From an uncultured Gemmatimonadales bacterium (GTDB lineage Bacteria; Gemmatimonadota; Gemmatimonadetes; Gemmatimonadales; GWC2-71-9): DNA of 64,000 nt. The DNA is taken from the NCBI GenBank assembly GCA_963695555.1, contig CAVOGR010000001.1, positions 768,001 to 832,000 of the forward strand, given 5' to 3'. A program made the translations under genes and the position numbers. Below, one piece after another: positions 41,526 through 50,481 of this stretch (position 1 is its first letter; the number at the start of each line of letters is the position of its first letter). The notes beneath the pieces were generated by a model. The model did not search any database. It was not told the DNA's origin and saw only the letters and a list, made by a program, of their open reading frames with translations.

Positions 41526-41954
41526 TTGGCTCCGACATTCGACTCATCTCCAGGAGGCCGTATCTCGAGTCTGCCATGGTGGGCCTCGATGTACCTTGGC
41601 GCCCTCGGCACGGTTGCCGTGCTCTCTTCGATCCTCGATCTGGGCCGGCGGCGGCCATGGTGGCATCTGCTGGCGAGCCTCATGGCCATTGCCGCAGTGG
41701 CGCTGATGGTGGTGACGTTCTGGTCGGAGCCGACCTTCGCGTTCTTTGGTCGCTGGATCGTGGTGGTATTTCTTGGCGCCGGCGCCTGGCTCATGCTGTC
41801 ATTCGCACAACGCATCGGCGAGCTCCTCCCGAAAATGCGCTCCAGTGACAGCCCTGCCGCGTCGGCCGAGTATGTCTGGTTCCTGGTCGAGGCGCTCTTC
41901 CTCGTCCCGGGGGTCGTCATCGGCATCATCCAGGTGGTTCGCGCATGGCTCTAG
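41526..41954 (+). CDS. hypothetical 4-TM membrane protein
   Basis: Four hydrophobic segments; start uncertain. Confidence 0.5.
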   Translation: MAPTFDSSPGGRISSLPWWASMYLGALGTVAVLSSILDLGRRRPWWHLLASLMAIAAVALMVVTFWSEPTFAFFGRWIVVVFLGAGAWLMLSFAQRIGELLPKMRSSDSPAASAEYVWFLVEALFLVPGVVIGIIQVVRAWL

Positions 41955-42502
41955 TACCCAAGACGTTGCTCAATGACACGGCCGTTGGGCTTACCGATGG
42001 CGACTTGCGGCGGCTCGCTATCGTCGCGCAGATGGATCGGGAGCAGTTCTTCGCGACGTATGCCCGGTGGCGGCAGCTCTACGGCGACCGGCATATCTGC
42101 ACGGTGCTGTGTGACGAAGGCCCCGACGCCCGGGGCTACACCGTGTGGAGTTTCTTCCGCGAGCACCCCGATGCCCCGCTGCCCTATCGCCGAAAACGCG
42201 TGTGGCCGGTCGAGGATGCACGCTTCGGCCGGTGCCTGGACCACCCGGCCTTCGCGGAACGATCGGTCGCGGTGATCAGCCGCAGCATTCCCGCTGGCCT
42301 GTTGGATGAAGCCGGCGAGACACTCGGGCGCTATCTGCAGGCGGGTAGGTCCGCCAGCGCCCGGCTCCTTCGGGACCGTCGGCTAGTGCAACTCGAGCCC
42401 GCCGAGGGTCGCGGGGAGGCCGTCTGGCCCGAGCCCGAGTCCCGTGGGCTGGTGCCTCTCCCCACGGCCGGCCAGCCACGCAGTCGCTGGCGGAGGCCGT
42501 AG
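41945..42502 (+). CDS. hypothetical protein
   Basis: ORF overlapping the upstream stop; protein-like composition. Confidence 0.45.
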   Translation: MALVPKTLLNDTAVGLTDGDLRRLAIVAQMDREQFFATYARWRQLYGDRHICTVLCDEGPDARGYTVWSFFREHPDAPLPYRRKRVWPVEDARFGRCLDHPAFAERSVAVISRSIPAGLLDEAGETLGRYLQAGRSASARLLRDRRLVQLEPAEGRGEAVWPEPESRGLVPLPTAGQPRSRWRRP

Positions 42503-42568: not shown

Positions 42569-42642
42569 GCGCCCGTAGCTCAATTGGATAGAGCATCGGA
42601 CTTCGGATCCGAGGGTTGGGGGTTCGAGTCCCTCCGGGCGCG
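42569..42642 (+). tRNA. tRNA-Arg, anticodon TCG; CCA not encoded
   Basis: Acceptor GCGCCCG/CGGGCGC; D arm GCTC..GAGC; anticodon stem TCGGA/TCCGA with loop CTTCGGA; T loop GGTTCGAGTCC. Confidence 0.95.
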
Positions 42643-42644
42643 CT

Positions 42645-42824: not shown

Positions 42825-44285
42825 GTGAGCAGCACTGAAAACCCAGCCAGCACCACGTTACGCAGCCGCATCCTCGGGGTCGAGCAGGAAGTCCCGTTGC
42901 TCGACGGGCGGATGGGGCCGTACGTCAACTTCGACAACGCCGCGAGCACGCCGCCGCTGGTGGACGTCATGGATGCGCTGACGCGGTTCCTGCCTTTCTA
43001 TTCCAGCGTGCACCGGGGGACCGGTTTCAAGTCCCGCTTGAGCAGCGAAGCCTACGATGACGCGCACAGGATCCTCACCAGGTTCGTCGGGGCCGACCCG
43101 GCCAGCAACACTGTCATCTTTGGCAAGAACACCACCGAAGCGATCAACAAGCTGTCCTACCGGTTGGCGCTGTCCTCCGACGCGGTCGTGCTCTCGTCGC
43201 AGCTCGAGCACCACTCCAACGATCTCCCGTGGCGGCGTACGGCCCAAGTCGTCCACGTCCGGGCCACCCCGGATGGCCGATTCGATGAAGACGACTTCGA
43301 CCGGCAATTGGCGCAGTATGGGAACCGCGTCGCCCTGGTCTCGGTGACCGGGGCCTCGAACGTGAGCGGCCTCATCCCGCCCATCCATCGACTGGCCCGG
43401 AAAGCCCATGCGGCGGGCGCACGCATTCTGGTGGATGCCGCTCAGCTCGCGCCCCATCGGCGGATCGACATGAGGCCCGACAACGATCCGGAGCATCTCG
43501 ATTTTGTCGTCTTGTCGGCACATAAGATGTACGCGCCGTTCGGGACCGGGGCGTTGGTGGGGCCGAAAGAGGTGTTCCTCAGGAGCGCGCCCGAATACCA
43601 GGGTGGGGGCACTGTCGATGTGGTAACCCTGGACGAGGTGCATTGGGCGGATGTTCCCGACCGCGAGGAAGCCGGGAGCCCCAATGTGGTCGGTGCGGTG
43701 GCCATGGCCGCGGCCGCGGCGGCCCTGATGGATGTCGGGATGGACACGATCGCCGAGCATGAGACCCGGCTGGTGAGCCATTGTCTCGAGCGGCTTCGCG
43801 ACGTGCCAGGGGCGGTGGTCTACGGGGACCGAGATCCGGCGCTGGCACACACCAGGGTGGGCGCCATCCCGTTCAATCTCGAGGGCGTGTCGCACGCGCT
43901 CCTGGCGTCCATCCTTGGTTACGAGGCCGGGATTGGCGTCCGGCACGGCTGCTTCTGCGCCCATCCCTACGTGGTGCATCTGCTCCAGCTCAGCGAAGCG
44001 GACGCGGCATCCTGGCGCGCGCAGGTCCTGACCGGCGACAAGTCCAACATGCCCGGGATGGTTCGCGTGAGCTTCGGGTGCTACAACACCACCGAGGAGA
44101 TCGATCGCCTGATCGACATGCTGGGCCGGATTTCCCGCGGCCAATACCAGGGCCGCTACCGGCAGCTCGCCGGGAACGGCGAGTACGTGCCGGAAGGACA
44201 GTCCATGCGATTCGATGAATACTTCTCCCTCGAACCGGGCGCGGCCGGATCGGGCGGGCTTCCGGAGCGGCTCTGCGGCGGCTAA
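42825..44285 (+). CDS. class V aminotransferase, SufS/Csd-like cysteine desulfurase family
   Basis: NFDNAAST, EHHSNDLPW, VDAAQ, SAHKMYAP (PLP Lys), RHGCFCA; RBS GAGGAG with GTG start. Confidence 0.88.
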   Translation: MSSTENPASTTLRSRILGVEQEVPLLDGRMGPYVNFDNAASTPPLVDVMDALTRFLPFYSSVHRGTGFKSRLSSEAYDDAHRILTRFVGADPASNTVIFGKNTTEAINKLSYRLALSSDAVVLSSQLEHHSNDLPWRRTAQVVHVRATPDGRFDEDDFDRQLAQYGNRVALVSVTGASNVSGLIPPIHRLARKAHAAGARILVDAAQLAPHRRIDMRPDNDPEHLDFVVLSAHKMYAPFGTGALVGPKEVFLRSAPEYQGGGTVDVVTLDEVHWADVPDREEAGSPNVVGAVAMAAAAAALMDVGMDTIAEHETRLVSHCLERLRDVPGAVVYGDRDPALAHTRVGAIPFNLEGVSHALLASILGYEAGIGVRHGCFCAHPYVVHLLQLSEADAASWRAQVLTGDKSNMPGMVRVSFGCYNTTEEIDRLIDMLGRISRGQYQGRYRQLAGNGEYVPEGQSMRFDEYFSLEPGAAGSGGLPERLCGG

Positions 44286-44335
44286 GACCTCGCGTCATGC
44301 CCGTCTCGAGTCCTCAGCCGGGTGACAACCCCACA

Positions 44336-46123
44336 ATGACGAAATCCCTGCTCGTGATCGGCGGTGCCTCGCTCGATATCCTGCACTTCCGAGGACGAAC
44401 GGCACGCTCGGCCGGCGGGGCGGGGCTCTACACTGCGCTCGCGGCCCATCGGGCCGGAGTGCGGGTCACCATGATCGGCCCCCGGCCCAATCCGATGCCG
44501 CCAGAACTCGGCCCCGCGGCGGAACGGATTCAATGGATCGGGCCCCAGGTGACGCCTGAAGAGTTGCCCACGTTCGAAATCGCGCACCACGGGGCTGGAT
44601 ACTCCAATATCGAAAACATCTACTGGCGCTCCGAGGCAGCACTCTCGCCGGCGGATCTACCCGGGCTCGAACCGGGTCACGACTTGGTCTATTGCATCGG
44701 GCTGACCGACCCCCAAAGCCAACTCGCTTTCGTTACCTACCTGCGGTCCATTGGTCGGACGGTGGCGTGCGGTACCTATGGTTGCGCCGTGACCGATCAT
44801 GCGCCTGTCGTTCGCGAAATCATGGAATTGGCGGACATCTTCTTCTGCAATGAGTCGGAAGCCGTCGGTCTCTTCGGTTCCGTCGAGGGGGCCCGCACCC
44901 AGTCCGGCAAAGTCCTGTTCGTCACTCGTGGACCGCGAGGGGCCAGGGTGATTCTTGGCGACTATGCAACCGACATACCGGCAATCCCTGTCCGCGAGTT
45001 GGATCCGACCGGCGCCGGCGACACATTCTGCGGAACCGTGCTGGCCTTTCTGGCGCACAATGCTCATCCGGTCATTGCGGCGGAGCACGGTGTAGCCGCC
45101 GCGGCTGAGATGATTACCGGCGTGGGCCCTGAAACTCTGCTCCGCGCCGCGCCGACGCCGGCCCCGCCGGACGACCCGCGGGTTCGTGTAGATGAAGCGC
45201 AAGCGGGTCGGATCGGCCGTCTGATCGGTTCGCTTCCGGAGGTCGAACCGTTCGACTTCACAGGCGAGCTGTTTCCACCGCCGGGACACACGGCTGCGTT
45301 GGATTTCTTTTTCGCGGCCACACTCCAGCAATTTGGATTCTGGAACGAGCAGGGCGGGCGCTACACCGCGCCGATGGTCGCGAGCGTGGGTGGGATCGAG
45401 CGCAAAGGAAGTGACTATCTCTGGGCGGCCTACCGCCGCTGGATGGAGGACGATCCGGAGGGACTGACCCCCGCCGCGCAGGCGTCGCTCGATCGCCCCG
45501 CCCTCGCCGCTCACACCCGCTCGGATTCGGGGGCGAGCCCGCTTCCGGTTCTCGACCTTCGAGTCGAGGCGGCACGCTCGTTTGGGCGCGACATGACCGC
45601 GCTAGGGTGGACCCCGGCCTCGGTTCTTCAGCACGCCAACGCATGCCCTGCGCCGCTCGAGAGCTTCTTGTCCTCACTCGATCGGGTGGGCGGATACAAG
45701 GAGGACCCGCTCCGAAAAAAGTCCGCGCTGCTCGCCGTCATTCTCGAGCAGCGGCCCGAGCGCTTTCTGAAACACATCCCCGGCGAGACCACGCCGCCAA
45801 TCGTGGATTACCACGTCATGCGGAGCTGTCTTCGTATGGGACTGATCCGGATCGATGACGAGGAGCTGTTGCGCAAACTCGAAGGCAGGGAGACGGTGCC
45901 GGCCCCGGACGAGTGGGCCGTTCGGCACGCGTCGTATCGTGCAATGACCCGGCTGCAGGGAGTCAGTGGCCGGTCGATGGGGGCAGTCGACTACTTCTTC
46001 TTCCAGAACCGTCGGCGCTGCCCGGAAATGACGGCACCGGATTGCGGCCGATGCCCGGTCGATCCAGCCTGTGCCCACGCCATCGGGCTGTTTCAGCCGG
46101 TGGTTCGCACCACATTCTACTAG
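44336..46123 (+). CDS. fusion of a PfkB/ribokinase-family kinase and a Qng1/queuosine-salvage-like domain, with a C-terminal 4-Cys Fe-S-type motif
   Basis: N-half GGAG, NESEA, VTRGPRGA, DPTGAGDTF; C-half LQQFGFW, KKSALL, VDYHVMR, VDYFFF; C-x7-C-x2-C-x5-C at the end. Confidence 0.7.
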   Translation: MTKSLLVIGGASLDILHFRGRTARSAGGAGLYTALAAHRAGVRVTMIGPRPNPMPPELGPAAERIQWIGPQVTPEELPTFEIAHHGAGYSNIENIYWRSEAALSPADLPGLEPGHDLVYCIGLTDPQSQLAFVTYLRSIGRTVACGTYGCAVTDHAPVVREIMELADIFFCNESEAVGLFGSVEGARTQSGKVLFVTRGPRGARVILGDYATDIPAIPVRELDPTGAGDTFCGTVLAFLAHNAHPVIAAEHGVAAAAEMITGVGPETLLRAAPTPAPPDDPRVRVDEAQAGRIGRLIGSLPEVEPFDFTGELFPPPGHTAALDFFFAATLQQFGFWNEQGGRYTAPMVASVGGIERKGSDYLWAAYRRWMEDDPEGLTPAAQASLDRPALAAHTRSDSGASPLPVLDLRVEAARSFGRDMTALGWTPASVLQHANACPAPLESFLSSLDRVGGYKEDPLRKKSALLAVILEQRPERFLKHIPGETTPPIVDYHVMRSCLRMGLIRIDDEELLRKLEGRETVPAPDEWAVRHASYRAMTRLQGVSGRSMGAVDYFFFQNRRRCPEMTAPDCGRCPVDPACAHAIGLFQPVVRTTFY

Positions 46124-46184: not shown

Positions 46185-46991
46185 ATGCCGTTCACCCTTG
46201 CACACCCCGCTGCCGCCATCCCCCTCCGACGCCTGCTTGGCGGGTCCGGGGTTCTCTCGGCCCTGGTCATCGGAAGCCTGACCCCGGATTTTGCCTACTT
46301 CGTGCCGTGGACCGTGAGCGTGATGGAAGCCCGCGGCGGAACGCACAGTTTTCTGGGGCTGCTCTGGTTCTGCCTACCGGTTGGGCTCGTCACCTACGTG
46401 GCCTTTCACGTCCTCGCGAAAGAGCCCGCCGTCGCCCTGTTGCCCGAACGGATAGCTCAGCGTCTCTGGCCGTTGGTGGACCGTGAGCCGGGCCTGCCGC
46501 GTGCCTCCGTTTGGGCCGTTGTCCTGTCGCTCATGGTCGGCGCCCTGACCCACCCGCTGTGGGATGCCTTTACCCACTTCGGCGGTCCAGCCATGGATAT
46601 CTTTCCCTTCTTGAACACCGCCGTTGGCCAGGTCTTTGGGCAGACGCTCCGGGTGTACAACGTGTTGCAGCATGCCAGCACAATCGGCGGGCTAGGCTTG
46701 TTGGCCTGGTGGACGATGCGCTGGATTCGTGCCGCGCCAGCTCCGGAGCTGACCCGACCCCGGCTCTCTCCACGTACCCGGACGCTCCTGATACTCATGG
46801 TCATGTTGGCGACGGCAGCCGGCGCAATTCTCGGTGGGTGGCGAGCCGCGCGAGTGGGAGAAGGGTGGTGGGCGGTCGAAACCTTCGTGTGGCACGGCGC
46901 CGTGTGGGGCATGGGGGCATTCGGCCTGACGTTGGTGCTGCTGGGTATCATCTGGCGAGGGACGGGGTGGCGCGCACTCGCGGAAACGTGA
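46185..46991 (+). CDS. DUF4184-family membrane protein
   Basis: MPFTLAHPAA, GSLTPD, THPLWDAFTH, LQHAST. Confidence 0.85.
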   Translation: MPFTLAHPAAAIPLRRLLGGSGVLSALVIGSLTPDFAYFVPWTVSVMEARGGTHSFLGLLWFCLPVGLVTYVAFHVLAKEPAVALLPERIAQRLWPLVDREPGLPRASVWAVVLSLMVGALTHPLWDAFTHFGGPAMDIFPFLNTAVGQVFGQTLRVYNVLQHASTIGGLGLLAWWTMRWIRAAPAPELTRPRLSPRTRTLLILMVMLATAAGAILGGWRAARVGEGWWAVETFVWHGAVWGMGAFGLTLVLLGIIWRGTGWRALAET

Positions 46992-47930: not shown

Positions 47931-50481
47931 ATGCCCGACAACCCGGCCGACAACGATCCCCTCACGCGCCTCCGCACGGCGCTGGCCGAGCGATACGAGG
48001 TGCTTGACCAGATCGGGCAAGGTGGCATGGCCACCGTGTATCTGGCGCGCGACGTCAAGCACGAGCGGAACGTCGCTCTCAAGGTCCTTCGGCCCGAACT
48101 CAGCGCCTCGCTCGGCGCGGAGCGCTTCCTGCGAGAGATTCGGGTCGCGGCGAACCTCCAGCATCCCAACATCCTGGCACTGTACGACTCCGGCGACGCG
48201 GATGGCTCCCTCTACTACGTCATGCCGTTCGTGGAGGGCGAGTCGCTGCGCGATCGGCTCGATCGCGAGCGACAGCTCACCATTCCCGACGCCCTCAAGA
48301 TCATCCGGGAAGTGTCGGAAGCGCTGAGCTACGCCCACGCCCAGGGTGTCGTCCATCGCGATATCAAGCCCGAGAACATCATGCTCATGGCCGATCATGC
48401 GCTGGTGGCCGACTTCGGGATCGCGCGCGCCGTCGAGGAGGCCGGCGACGACAGGCTGACCCAATCGGGCATGGCCATCGGGACCCCGCTCTACATGAGC
48501 CCGGAACAGGCCGCCGGGGTCGAGCGGGTCGACGGCCGGAGCGACATCTACAGTCTCGGGTGCATGCTGTACGAGCTGCTGACCGGGGAGCCGCCCTATC
48601 TCGGCTCAACGCCGATCGCGCTCATGACCAAGCACTCGATGGAGGCCATCCCGAGCAGCAAGGTGCTTCGGAACACCGTTCCGGATGAGGTCGATGCCGC
48701 GATCGGGAAGGCCATGGCAAAGGTCCCGGCCGACCGGTTCCAGACCGCACTTCAACTCGCGGAGGCCTTGGGCTCTGTCGAGCACCGGATGAGCATGGGC
48801 GTTGCTCTTCCGGTCACGGTACCTGTGCCGGCCCGCCCCACGGTGGAGCTGCCGAAGAAGCGGGGGCTGTCGAAACTTGCCTTGGCCATGGGTGCCGGAG
48901 GGCTCCTCGTGATTCTGGGGGCCGTCGCCGCCTGGCAACTCGGCCTGTTCGGGGGCGGCGACGGGACGCTCTTCGAGGAGACCGGGCCCGACCCGCGGAA
49001 CATCGCGGTGCTCTACTTCGATGATCAAAGCGCCGACCGCAATCTGGGGTATCTGGCCGATCGGTTTCACCGAGGCGTTGATCGGCGAGTTGAGTCGGGT
49101 GCAGGGGCTCAAGGTGATCTCGCGGAACGGCGTCTTGCCCTACCAGGGTCAGCGGGTGTCTCCCGACAGCATCGCGCGGGCACTCGGCGTCGGGACCTTG
49201 GTCCAGGGCACCATTCAACAGTCGGGTGATCGCCTCCGGATCAACGTCTCGCTGGTCAATGCGGCCGACGGTGCCGAGATCGGCAAGACGACCCTCGAAC
49301 GGAACAAGGACGAGACCTTCGCCCTCCAGGATGACGTGAGCCGGGAGGTGTCGGCCTTCCTCCGACGCCGGCTGGGCGAAGAGGTCCAAATTCGCGAAAG
49401 CCGGCGCGGCACCGGCAATCTCGCCGCCTGGCAGAAGGCCCAGGAGGCCGAGCGGCTGGAGCGGGGGGTACAGGCGTTTCTGGATGCCGGAGACGTCGAG
49501 GCCGCGTCGCAGGAATTTTCCCGCGCCGACTCGCTCTTTGCGGAAGCTGCGTCGCTGGACGACAAGTGGGCGAGTCCGGAGATTGCGCGCGGCTGGATCG
49601 ACTACCGGCGGGCCCGAGAGCTGGCGCGAGGGTTCGACAAGGCGCACTACGCCGAGTGGATCGAGAAGGGTCTGGTCCACGCCGACCGTGCGCTTGCGCT
49701 GGCACCGAACGACCCTGACGCCCTCGAGCTTCGAGGCACGTTCCGGTATTTGAACTATCTCCTGAATCTCGTGCCCGATGCCGAGCAGGAATTGTCCCTG
49801 GCGGAGCAAGATCTCGTGGCGTCGGTGCGGGCCAATCCACAGCAGGCGTCGGCGCTGACCACCTTGAGCCATCTGCTCATGAACCAGGGCAAGACCGCCC
49901 AGGCCAAGGTCCAGGCCCAGCGTGCCTACGAAGCGGATCCCTACCTGAGCAACGTCGATCGCACCATCTGGCGGCTGTTCACCAGCTCACTCGATCTCGA
50001 TGAGGCGGTCGAGGCCACGCGATGGTGCGAGGAAGGAAGGCGCCGCTTTCCCGACGACCCGCGGTTCGTCGAGTGCCAAATCCGAGTGTTTGCCTTACGG
50101 GGCCAGACGCCGGATGTTCCCAAGCTCTGGCGATTGGTCGATGAGTACGTCGAGAAGAGCGCCGAAAATCTCCGCGAGTTCCGGCGCAAGCGGGCCGGCA
50201 TGTTCGTGGCGATGGCGTTGGTGCGCGCCGGCTTGCCGGACAGCGCGCGGGCGGTTGCGGTCCGGTCACGGGCGGACGCGGAAATCGATACGGCTCGGGA
50301 GCTGGCCTGGTTCGAGGCCATCGTCCGAACGTTCCTGGGCGAGAAAGACCAGGCCATCGACCTGCTTAGCGTGTACCTGGCATCCAATCCGGGGCAGCGC
50401 GCCTCCTGGGCCCGCGATTCGACGTGGTGGTTCAAGGATCTCCGGTCCGACCCTCGGTATCGGGATCTGGTAGGATCCTAG
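47931..50481 (+). CDS. Ser/Thr protein kinase + TM + TolB_N-like + TPR; one frameshift near 49062
   Basis: GQGGMA, VALK, HRDIKPEN, DFG; ORFs 47931-49229 and 49021-50481 join at GYLAD|GFTEAL (one extra C). Confidence 0.85.

Follow-up and report, generated by a model that had tools for sequence, protein, structure and literature searches.

What is the function of a protein that joins a PfkB-type kinase to a domain resembling the queuosine-salvage glycosylase Qng1? The question is raised by a gene at positions 44336..46123 (595 aa; + strand, as for all of its parts given below) of the window, i.e. the whole 64,000-nucleotide stretch analysed here, which spans positions 768,001 to 832,000 of contig CAVOGR010000001.1 of an uncultured Gemmatimonadales bacterium (assembly GCA_963695555.1). 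The initial annotation proposed that the product, a PfkB kinase fused to a Qng1-like domain with an iron–sulfur (Fe–S) motif, might be a one-protein salvage pathway for queuosine (Q). Our analysis upholds the architecture and argues against queuosine. The reading that we favour, and that we regard as about as easily right as wrong, is a one-chain kinase and 5′-nucleotide glycosylase, similar in principle to PsuK–PsuG, acting on oxidised, ring-opened or N7-altered guanosine, a substrate class that we infer from the evidence below. Its role would be the disposal or salvage of modified or damaged guanosine other than queuosine.

Open reading frame (ORF) analysis revealed a stop-free frame over all 595 aa. 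An upstream in-frame ATG at 44297 could add 13 aa; the start column of 44336 is used by 43/115 aligned homologs, and most of the others begin within six residues of it. This alignment comprises the query and 114 of the 120 listed relatives, the five closest relatives and one fragment having been excluded. The motifs quoted in the initial annotation were all located (DPTGAGDTF at residue 223, QFGFW at 332, KKSALL at 461, VDYHVMR at 490, EWAVR at 526, VDYFFF at 551 and C-x7-C-x2-C-x5-C at 562–579), and the PfkB signature is intact and in frame with the C-terminal domain. The fusion is a real family and no chance join: the 120 listed relatives cover 91–100 % of the query at 54–92 % identity, and of 8000 candidates that were scored, no fewer than 1280 were full-length relatives. 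An AlphaFold model of the two-domain chain, obtained from the 115-sequence alignment, returned a mean predicted local distance difference test (pLDDT) score of 94.6 and a predicted template modelling (pTM) score of 0.94; because of this pTM, the model suggests that the two domains are placed rigidly relative to each other.

The N-terminal domain (residues 1–272; 44336..45151) is a nucleoside-kinase-like member of the PfkB/ribokinase family (PF00294, E value 3.6e-20). It has the fold of the PfkB superfamily, the N-x-x-E motif (N172-x-x-E175) and the GAGD anion hole (GAGD229), keeps S12-x-D14 and G27-G28, and shares its catalytic D229 with all but one of the aligned sequences (114/115). The closest solved kinase is the nucleoside kinase of Chlorobium tepidum (3KD6), as indicated by profile (E value 4e-25) and by structure comparison (Z 32.4 vs 31.3 for ribokinase). 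In ribokinase, the sugar is bound by a Lys, an Asn and a Glu beside a conserved Asp. The ribose-binding Asp is retained here, but the other three are replaced by A29, Y32 and a small residue, and the score against TIGR02152, the model for RbsK proper, is 46.7 bits vs a cut-off of 299.65. Because the ribokinase Lys, Asn and Glu are replaced, a nucleoside substrate and a kinase-first order are favoured over ribose recycling; of the two roles suggested in the initial annotation, the supply of a 5′-monophosphate is thus favoured on these residues, whereas the recycling of released ribose loses ground. Standalone copies of the kinase subfamily were also observed (L015:6001-6846, L016:5908-6783 and L247), and no relative of the glycosylase domain was found in G205 or G316, genomes with standalone kinases.

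The C-terminal domain (residues 282–595; 45179..46120) is predicted to be a helix-hairpin-helix (HhH) N-glycosylase with the fold of Qng1. Folded alone, it matched Qng1 in Foldseek at template modelling (TM) scores of 0.74–0.79, and VIA comparison with Qng1 returned Z 29.4 and 28.5 (root-mean-square deviation 2.7 and 2.5 over 293 and 286 aligned residues), the next folds scoring far lower (AGOG Z 14.3, EndoIII 14.0, MutY 13.5). The structural alignment includes the Qng1-type insertions and tail and reaches the last residue (595 vs 323). Profiles were required to recover this relationship from sequence: a single-sequence PDB search with the C half returned just an E value of 1.8 to human QNG1, whereas a profile from 60 relatives reached S. 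thermophilus and human Qng1 at E values of 2e-15 to 3e-15. The Q_salvage Pfam model, named in the initial annotation as a check, did find a match (E value 2.5e-5), which at 24.4 bits lies under the cut-off of 25. Some relatives carry the PF10343 annotation and NCBIfam holds no family for the C half; a PF10343 search of the genome missed the protein, but the control was silent too and the search is hence uninformative. The proposed likeness to Qng1 is supported at the level of fold, the C half having the Qng1/HhH-glycosylase fold. Judged from fold and mapped residues (below) together, the domain follows the working plan of Qng1 yet is placed outside Qng1/DUF2419 membership.

Residues were mapped by profile alignment to 7U07 and to the residues described in PMC9881137. 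Five Qng1 residues are each kept in 115/115 sequences, namely K199 (K461, the HhH lysine; 45716..45718; also in 56/60 members of the wider family), D231 (D491), F75 (F335), Y232 (Y492) and D298 (D552), and E267 is kept as E526. The putative catalytic Asp491 opens an EndoIII-type D-x-H-x-x-R-x3-R motif (45806..45835), while D552 and the stacking F556 (45989..46003) match the guanine-edge reader found as D298/W302 in Qng1, Q315/F319 in OGG1 and D218/W222 in AGOG. Tyr595, followed by the stop codon (46118..46123), is the last residue in 115/115 sequences and aligns with Tyr323 of Qng1, which contributes its free carboxylate to the active site of that enzyme (PMC9881137); the model's confidence in the tail is low. 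Qng1 loses its activity when tagged at the C-terminus. In the 5′-phosphate pocket, R80 corresponds to R342 (100/115; poorly kept in standalone members, 14/60) and Y232 to Y492, K233 is replaced by H493, and Q306 by the variable R560 beside an invariant R559. The initial proposal that a single polypeptide couples a kinase with a nucleotide glycosylase is supported.

The C-x7-C-x2-C-x5-C loop (46019..46072) very probably holds a 4Fe–4S cluster, as the initial annotation had supposed. Its four Cys are present in 115/115 fusions and 58–60/60 wider members vs 0/25 true Qng1, and the accompanying D491-x-H493-x-x-R496-x3-R500 is likewise invariant (115/115); the cluster is predicted because both the four Cys and this EndoIII-type Asp-His-Arg motif are invariant. 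In EndoIII, a Cys-Arg-His-Asp network connects the cluster with the catalytic Asp (an excerpt of PMC12000561), and both EndoIII/MutY sequence motifs, the Cys loop and the network, are found here with the first spacer one residue longer. The Cys spacing alone occurs in 6/18,178 frames of the genome; together with an upstream D-x-[HN]-x-x-R-x3-R, it occurs in two, one of them in this protein and the other in a MutY-like protein. A quick unrooted tree built from 108 domains placed true Qng1 in a clade of its own (support 98), with Cys-bearing forms among its nearest sisters as well as on more remote branches, a topology that, with the root not set, is compatible with cluster loss in Qng1. A single fusion event, also considered, is unsupported by this tree, in which the count of one change for the fused state compares only with true Qng1.

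The domain departs from Qng1 in its base pocket (45320..45415), where T329, Q332, F335, W336 ... K357-G-S359-D360 stand in place of D69, N72, F75, W76 ... Y93, W94. Qng1 is proposed to protonate its 7-deaza base through a D69/N72/D207 relay (PMC9881137, in the section cited); here, this relay is lost (D69 to T329, N72 to Q332 and D207 to I469), its two motifs occurring in 0/115 fusions vs 24/25 true Qng1, and none of the 60 wider members has an Asp at the D69 or D207 site. The cyclopentenediol pocket is replaced as well (W48 to F308, Y93 to S359, W94 to D360, W299 to a variable residue 553, P46 to F306 and H53 to F313), as is W302 (F556), and the KGSD stretch (357–360) is present in 115/115 sequences. 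In a sub-branch of the fusions (L253 in G245, and P0249), Ala-Phe or Ser-Phe replaces the Ser-Asp of positions 359–360, and Phe occupies position 360 in 7/58 sequences of alignment A2, suggesting a second specificity.

On the favoured reading, the PfkB domain would use ATP to convert a nucleoside into its 5′-monophosphate, as its family membership and intact catalytic residues suggest. The Qng1-fold domain, judged by its fold and residues, would then bury the monophosphate: Asp552/Phe556 would recognise the edge of a guanine-like base, the ribose would be held by Lys461, Tyr492 and the C-terminal Tyr595, and Arg342, His493 and Arg559 would be located near the phosphate. Asp491 would drive N-glycosidic cleavage to the free base and ribose 5-phosphate, with the 4Fe–4S cluster probably supporting the active site via His493 and Arg496 in an EndoIII-like manner. 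Ser359-Asp360, a new invariant pair, would lie near base position 7, where Asp360 could accommodate a cation or an N7-H donor; bases of either kind would have no need for the Qng1 relay, whose loss counts in favour of this reading. OGG1, OGG2 and AGOG, to whose guanine reader D552/F556 corresponds, recognise 8-oxoguanine via N7-H (a passage of PMC3397491). The leading candidates, all speculative, are 8-oxoguanosine, ring-opened formamidopyrimidine (Fapy) guanosine and 7-methylguanosine, while standalone copies of the glycosylase may act on monophosphates from RNA turnover, MutT-type enzymes or GTP cyclohydrolases.

Fusions and neighbours of family members elsewhere provide further clues to the substrate. 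One divergent member (P0341, a cluster of 6) is fused to a GTP cyclohydrolase II with intact zinc cysteines, an enzyme whose products are ring-opened guanine 5′-monophosphates (PMC9478397, in the part cited). Genes of purine or nucleoside catabolism lie near several unrelated family copies, including a xanthine-dehydrogenase-type cluster (L288, L291), a nucleoside hydrolase and an adenosine deaminase directly upstream of the family gene (L292), a uridine-kinase family gene (L300), NupC (L129, L131), nucleoside phosphorylases (L170, L172) and phosphoribosyltransferases (L141, L013). Together, the P0341 fusion and these scattered neighbours point to an altered guanosine as the substrate. The P0341 cyclohydrolase has a Leu in place of a Tyr of E. 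coli RibA that is presumably needed for formate release and whose loss would, on this unverified assumption, leave a Fapy product; no paper on such a Tyr105 switch was found in the open-access literature.

Several observations weigh against the favoured reading. Nucleoside kinase outscores ribokinase by a Z of just 1.1, and the pocket assignments depend on a profile alignment at 17–20 % identity. When neighbours were clustered over 70 locus groups, lineage synteny was all that emerged, and no neighbour was conserved otherwise. Catabolic genes make up a minority of the neighbours and include some related pairs, in a raw tally without background control for which part of the neighbours was annotated, and repair-type neighbours (ATL, AlkZ-related, AidB-like and UvrD) occur at a similar frequency; the fusion to cyclohydrolase is known from a single cluster, which sits on a long branch. 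Finally, most carriers have queA (23/24) and tgt (22/24).

The que genes bear on a first alternative, which we consider unlikely: salvage of a smaller 7-deazaguanine (preQ1, preQ0 or archaeosine nucleoside), with Asp360 binding a cationic 7-substituent and the base feeding Tgt/QueA. This genome (87 % complete) encodes queG as well as adjacent tgt and queA genes, each broken into pieces, whereas queC and YhhQ were not found in it; because tgt, queA and queG are present but queC was not found, the organism would need preQ1. Similarly, queC is missing in 13/24 carriers, one family copy lies tail-to-tail with tgt (L128), and a preQ1 transporter beside a bacterial qng1 is reported in an excerpt of PMC11130926. 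Against this stand the presence of queC in the other 11/24 carriers, the loss of the relay needed for 7-deaza bases, and four carriers in which queA is missing, two of which, on examination, have a divergent tgt beside true Qng1. Moreover, tgt lies near just 1/85 independent family loci, and no queA, queC or queG was found in ~760 kb of flank around the family loci. The carrier profile itself does not discriminate, queA being present in 146/201 Chloroflexota genomes, and tgt in carriers vs matched non-carriers of two classes (15/17 vs 27/27, p 0.14; 8/8 vs 18/28, p 0.08) differed in opposite directions. The phylogenetic profile against tgt/que genes recommended in the initial annotation thus revealed neither clustering nor consistent co-occurrence.

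Some features of these que genes deserve record in their own right. The queA (four pieces) and tgt (two pieces) frames of this genome are adjacent and frameshifted at G000:C1:201696-203870, outside the window; the same pair is whole in the same-genus G023, and the pieces probably reflect assembly indels. In the base pocket, Tgt proteins of this genus carry His-Val in place of the Glu-Cys seen in most others. A QueF match in this genome was rejected as a GTP cyclohydrolase I-like protein. Many Chloroflexota (among G206-G405) have second, weaker QueA-like and Tgt-like paralogues (E values about 1e-80 to 1e-95).

The catabolic neighbours, being generic purine-catabolism genes, also suit a general purine nucleoside kinase coupled to a nucleosidase of guanosine, inosine or xanthosine monophosphate (GMP, IMP or XMP), or a nucleoside glycosylase followed by ribose phosphorylation. 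Although the guanine-edge Asp is retained and ribokinase is structurally almost as close as nucleoside kinase, we consider this quite unlikely: the ribokinase residues are missing, the genome has a separate PfkB paralogue (E value 6e-19), and an unregulated GMP hydrolase beside a kinase would be expected to drain nucleotide pools. Qng1 itself leaves AMP, GMP, CMP and UMP uncleaved in the experiments covered by the cited part of PMC9881137.

Distinctly improbable is the pathway envisaged in the initial annotation, i.e. a queuosine kinase and queuosine-5′-monophosphate (Q-5′MP) hydrolase that would perform queuine salvage in one protein and supply the missing Q kinase. Qng1 is by far the nearest fold and prefers Q-5′MP (a passage of PMC9881137), no Q kinase had been identified by 2025 (an excerpt of PMC12207525), and in one class true Qng1 co-occurs more often with the fusion (5/17 vs 1/27, p 0.025, non-independent), which could mean that the kinase serves Qng1. 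However, the equivalents of D69, D207, Y93 and W94 are replaced family-wide, and true Qng1 coexists with the fusion in 5/42 carrier genomes; since these genomes seem to salvage queuine through ordinary Qng1 and yet retain the fusion at another site, its glycosylase domain probably has another job. In four of these five genomes, true Qng1 adjoins tgt and queA was not found, and the two tgt genes examined encode a divergent GG-SLG pocket, which we take to be the queuine-inserting type. At two such loci (L306:3582-6429 and L307:2077-4319), where queA was again not found, true qng1 immediately precedes a divergent tgt that bears an insertion and the GG-SLG pocket, and the pair is likely a direct queuine-salvage operon in Chloroflexota. 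True Qng1 has tgt within 1.5 kb in 4/27 loci vs the 1/85 of the present family (p 0.012, kin not independent). Most carriers have a preQ1-type Tgt motif and QueA, because of which free queuine would be of little direct use to them.

The kinase gives no support to a role as the missing Q kinase either. In Chloroflexota genomes, the kinase subfamily is tied to the fusion: it was found in 3/201 genomes (two fused, one standalone) and in 0/37 genomes with weaker Qng1-like matches, where 12 candidates per genome were scored and misses are possible; 24/25 of the Qng1-like Chloroflexota proteins retrieved have the Qng1 motif. The weakest alternative, and a highly improbable one, is that the C domain is a DNA/RNA repair glycosylase like EndoIII or AGOG whose products the kinase recycles, since, against the retained Fe–S loop and EndoIII-type motif, the GIY-YIG fusions of more distant relatives (L207, L208) and the ATL and AlkZ-related genes near a few loci, the domain aligns with Qng1 over 286–293 residues, a span that takes in the very insertions and tail by which Qng1 has its DNA cleft blocked, and tRNA is not a Qng1 substrate in the cited part of PMC9881137.

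Within the window, the gene has the upstream neighbours named in the initial annotation, a tRNA-Arg(TCG) (42569-42643) and a SufS-like class V aminotransferase (42825..44285, + strand; PF00266, E value 1e-78), but neither proved to be a conserved partner. The aminotransferase scores 273 bits, below the SufS cut-off of 475, and was rejected as a partner as it adjoins in 5/123 family loci, all from relatives that are 84–100 % identical. Queuosine is carried by tRNAs with GUN anticodons, and tRNA-Arg(UCG) is not among them. A DUF4184 membrane protein directly downstream (46185-46991, + strand) was likewise rejected, since it adjoins only in close relatives. Upstream of the tRNA lies a 185-aa ORF (41945-42502, + strand) that is 94–95 % conserved in close relatives and has no Pfam or NCBIfam match, and a Ser/Thr kinase and a TPR-like part at 47931-50481 (+ strand) form two overlapping ORFs, possibly one indel-split gene.

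The family is patchy, occurring in 10/201 genomes of this phylum (all fused), 18/301 of the class of G245 and 9/201 of the class of G412. Standalone glycosylase domains are common: the kinase is absent in 40/70 locus groups, in some merely through contig ends, and clear standalone copies were found in Verrucomicrobiota and Kiritimatiellota (L009, L011, L012) and as one named archaeal protein. The glycosylase domain matches 389 clusters at 50 % identity (E value ≤0.001), which may include true Qng1; the ESM Atlas contains related unnamed clusters, among them mainly archaeal 'iron-sulfur cluster loop' proteins, which we treat as a lead only. A search for longer fusions returned 23 proteins, all of them PfkB fusions and one with an extra SDR domain, and no relative was found in the phages, plasmids or viral contigs searched. 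Some loci were unusual. L013:6004-7007 is a decayed copy, with an intact kinase followed by frameshifted glycosylase remnants, upstream of an HPRT-like gene. In two Chloroflexota genomes (L207:6347-7810 and L208:6079-7365), a GIY-YIG domain shares its reading frame with a Cys-rich Qng1-like domain that is more distantly related. At L209:422-13000 (G237, in which queA was not found), an ABC transporter operon that includes GntR, an additional ABC ATPase, an SDR and an amidohydrolase is flanked by two Cys-bearing Qng1-like paralogues, which the tree places as sisters of true Qng1.

The family is undescribed in the literature searched: no description of it or of the fusion was found in open-access text, although the supplements of PMC9881137 and PMC11130926 might contain members. 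Mislabelling occurs within this large family: one member carries the name 'queuosine salvage family protein' despite the loss of the queuine-specific residues. To our knowledge, little has been established about what becomes of most modified or damaged guanine nucleosides once RNA is turned over. Here, both proposed steps would reside in one soluble protein that could be screened against a small nucleoside panel, and the predicted EndoIII-type Fe–S module on a Qng1 scaffold would offer a natural test of the role of the cluster without DNA; the less likely queuosine reading, if true, would identify the first Q kinase. A broader proposal, which we hold to be doubtful, is that these proteins form a widespread 4Fe–4S nucleotide glycosylase family bridging EndoIII/MutY and the cluster-less Qng1 and, with the kinase, the first dedicated pathway to clear the free pool of guanine nucleosides and nucleotides that are oxidised or ring-opened; if true, it would show that Qng1 originated through cluster loss and gain of the queuine pocket.

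Among known systems, Qng1/QNG1 (DUF2419, PF10343), the queuosine-5′-monophosphate N-glycosylase, is the most similar, sharing the fold, the HhH Lys and Asp, the ribose-stacking Phe and Tyr, the guanine-edge Asp, the Arg80 equivalent and the terminal Tyr. Unlike Qng1, the fusion has its relay aspartates and aromatic queuine pocket replaced, a four-Cys loop added and a kinase attached, and it forms a separate clade, under the Pfam cut-off and without tgt clustering. Endonuclease III, MutY and MIG, the 4Fe–4S HhH-GPD DNA glycosylases, share the Cys spacing (x7 here, x6 there), the D-x-H-x-x-R network and the fold at Z 12–14; unlike them, the fusion carries the Qng1-type insertions and tail, and no significant whole-domain sequence match to EndoIII was found (E value 0.09, Cys loop only). 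As for the DNA-binding cleft, the model of the domain resembles Qng1, in which it is blocked. AGOG, the third-best fold, OGG1 and OGG2 share the Lys/Asp pair and the Asp(Gln)-x3-Trp(Phe) guanine reader; however, they act on DNA, and their N7-H readers (AGOG Gln31, OGG1 Gly42) are not equated with Asp360. The 3KD6-type PfkB kinase of C. tepidum, nearest to the kinase domain by both measures, differs in being standalone at ~23 % identity, and we found no established natural substrate for it. RibX/YbiA (COG3236), reportedly an N-glycosidase of riboflavin intermediates linked to GTP cyclohydrolase II, has an unrelated fold and offers an analogy only with P0341. A parallel in overall design is PsuK–PsuG, the pseudouridine kinase and the pseudouridine-5′-phosphate glycosidase, in which a PfkB kinase and a 5′-nucleotide glycosidase that yield a base and ribose 5-phosphate are joined in one chain in animals and fungi (PMC9247573, in the part cited), albeit with an unrelated glycosidase fold, the opposite domain order and a pyrimidine C-nucleoside as substrate.

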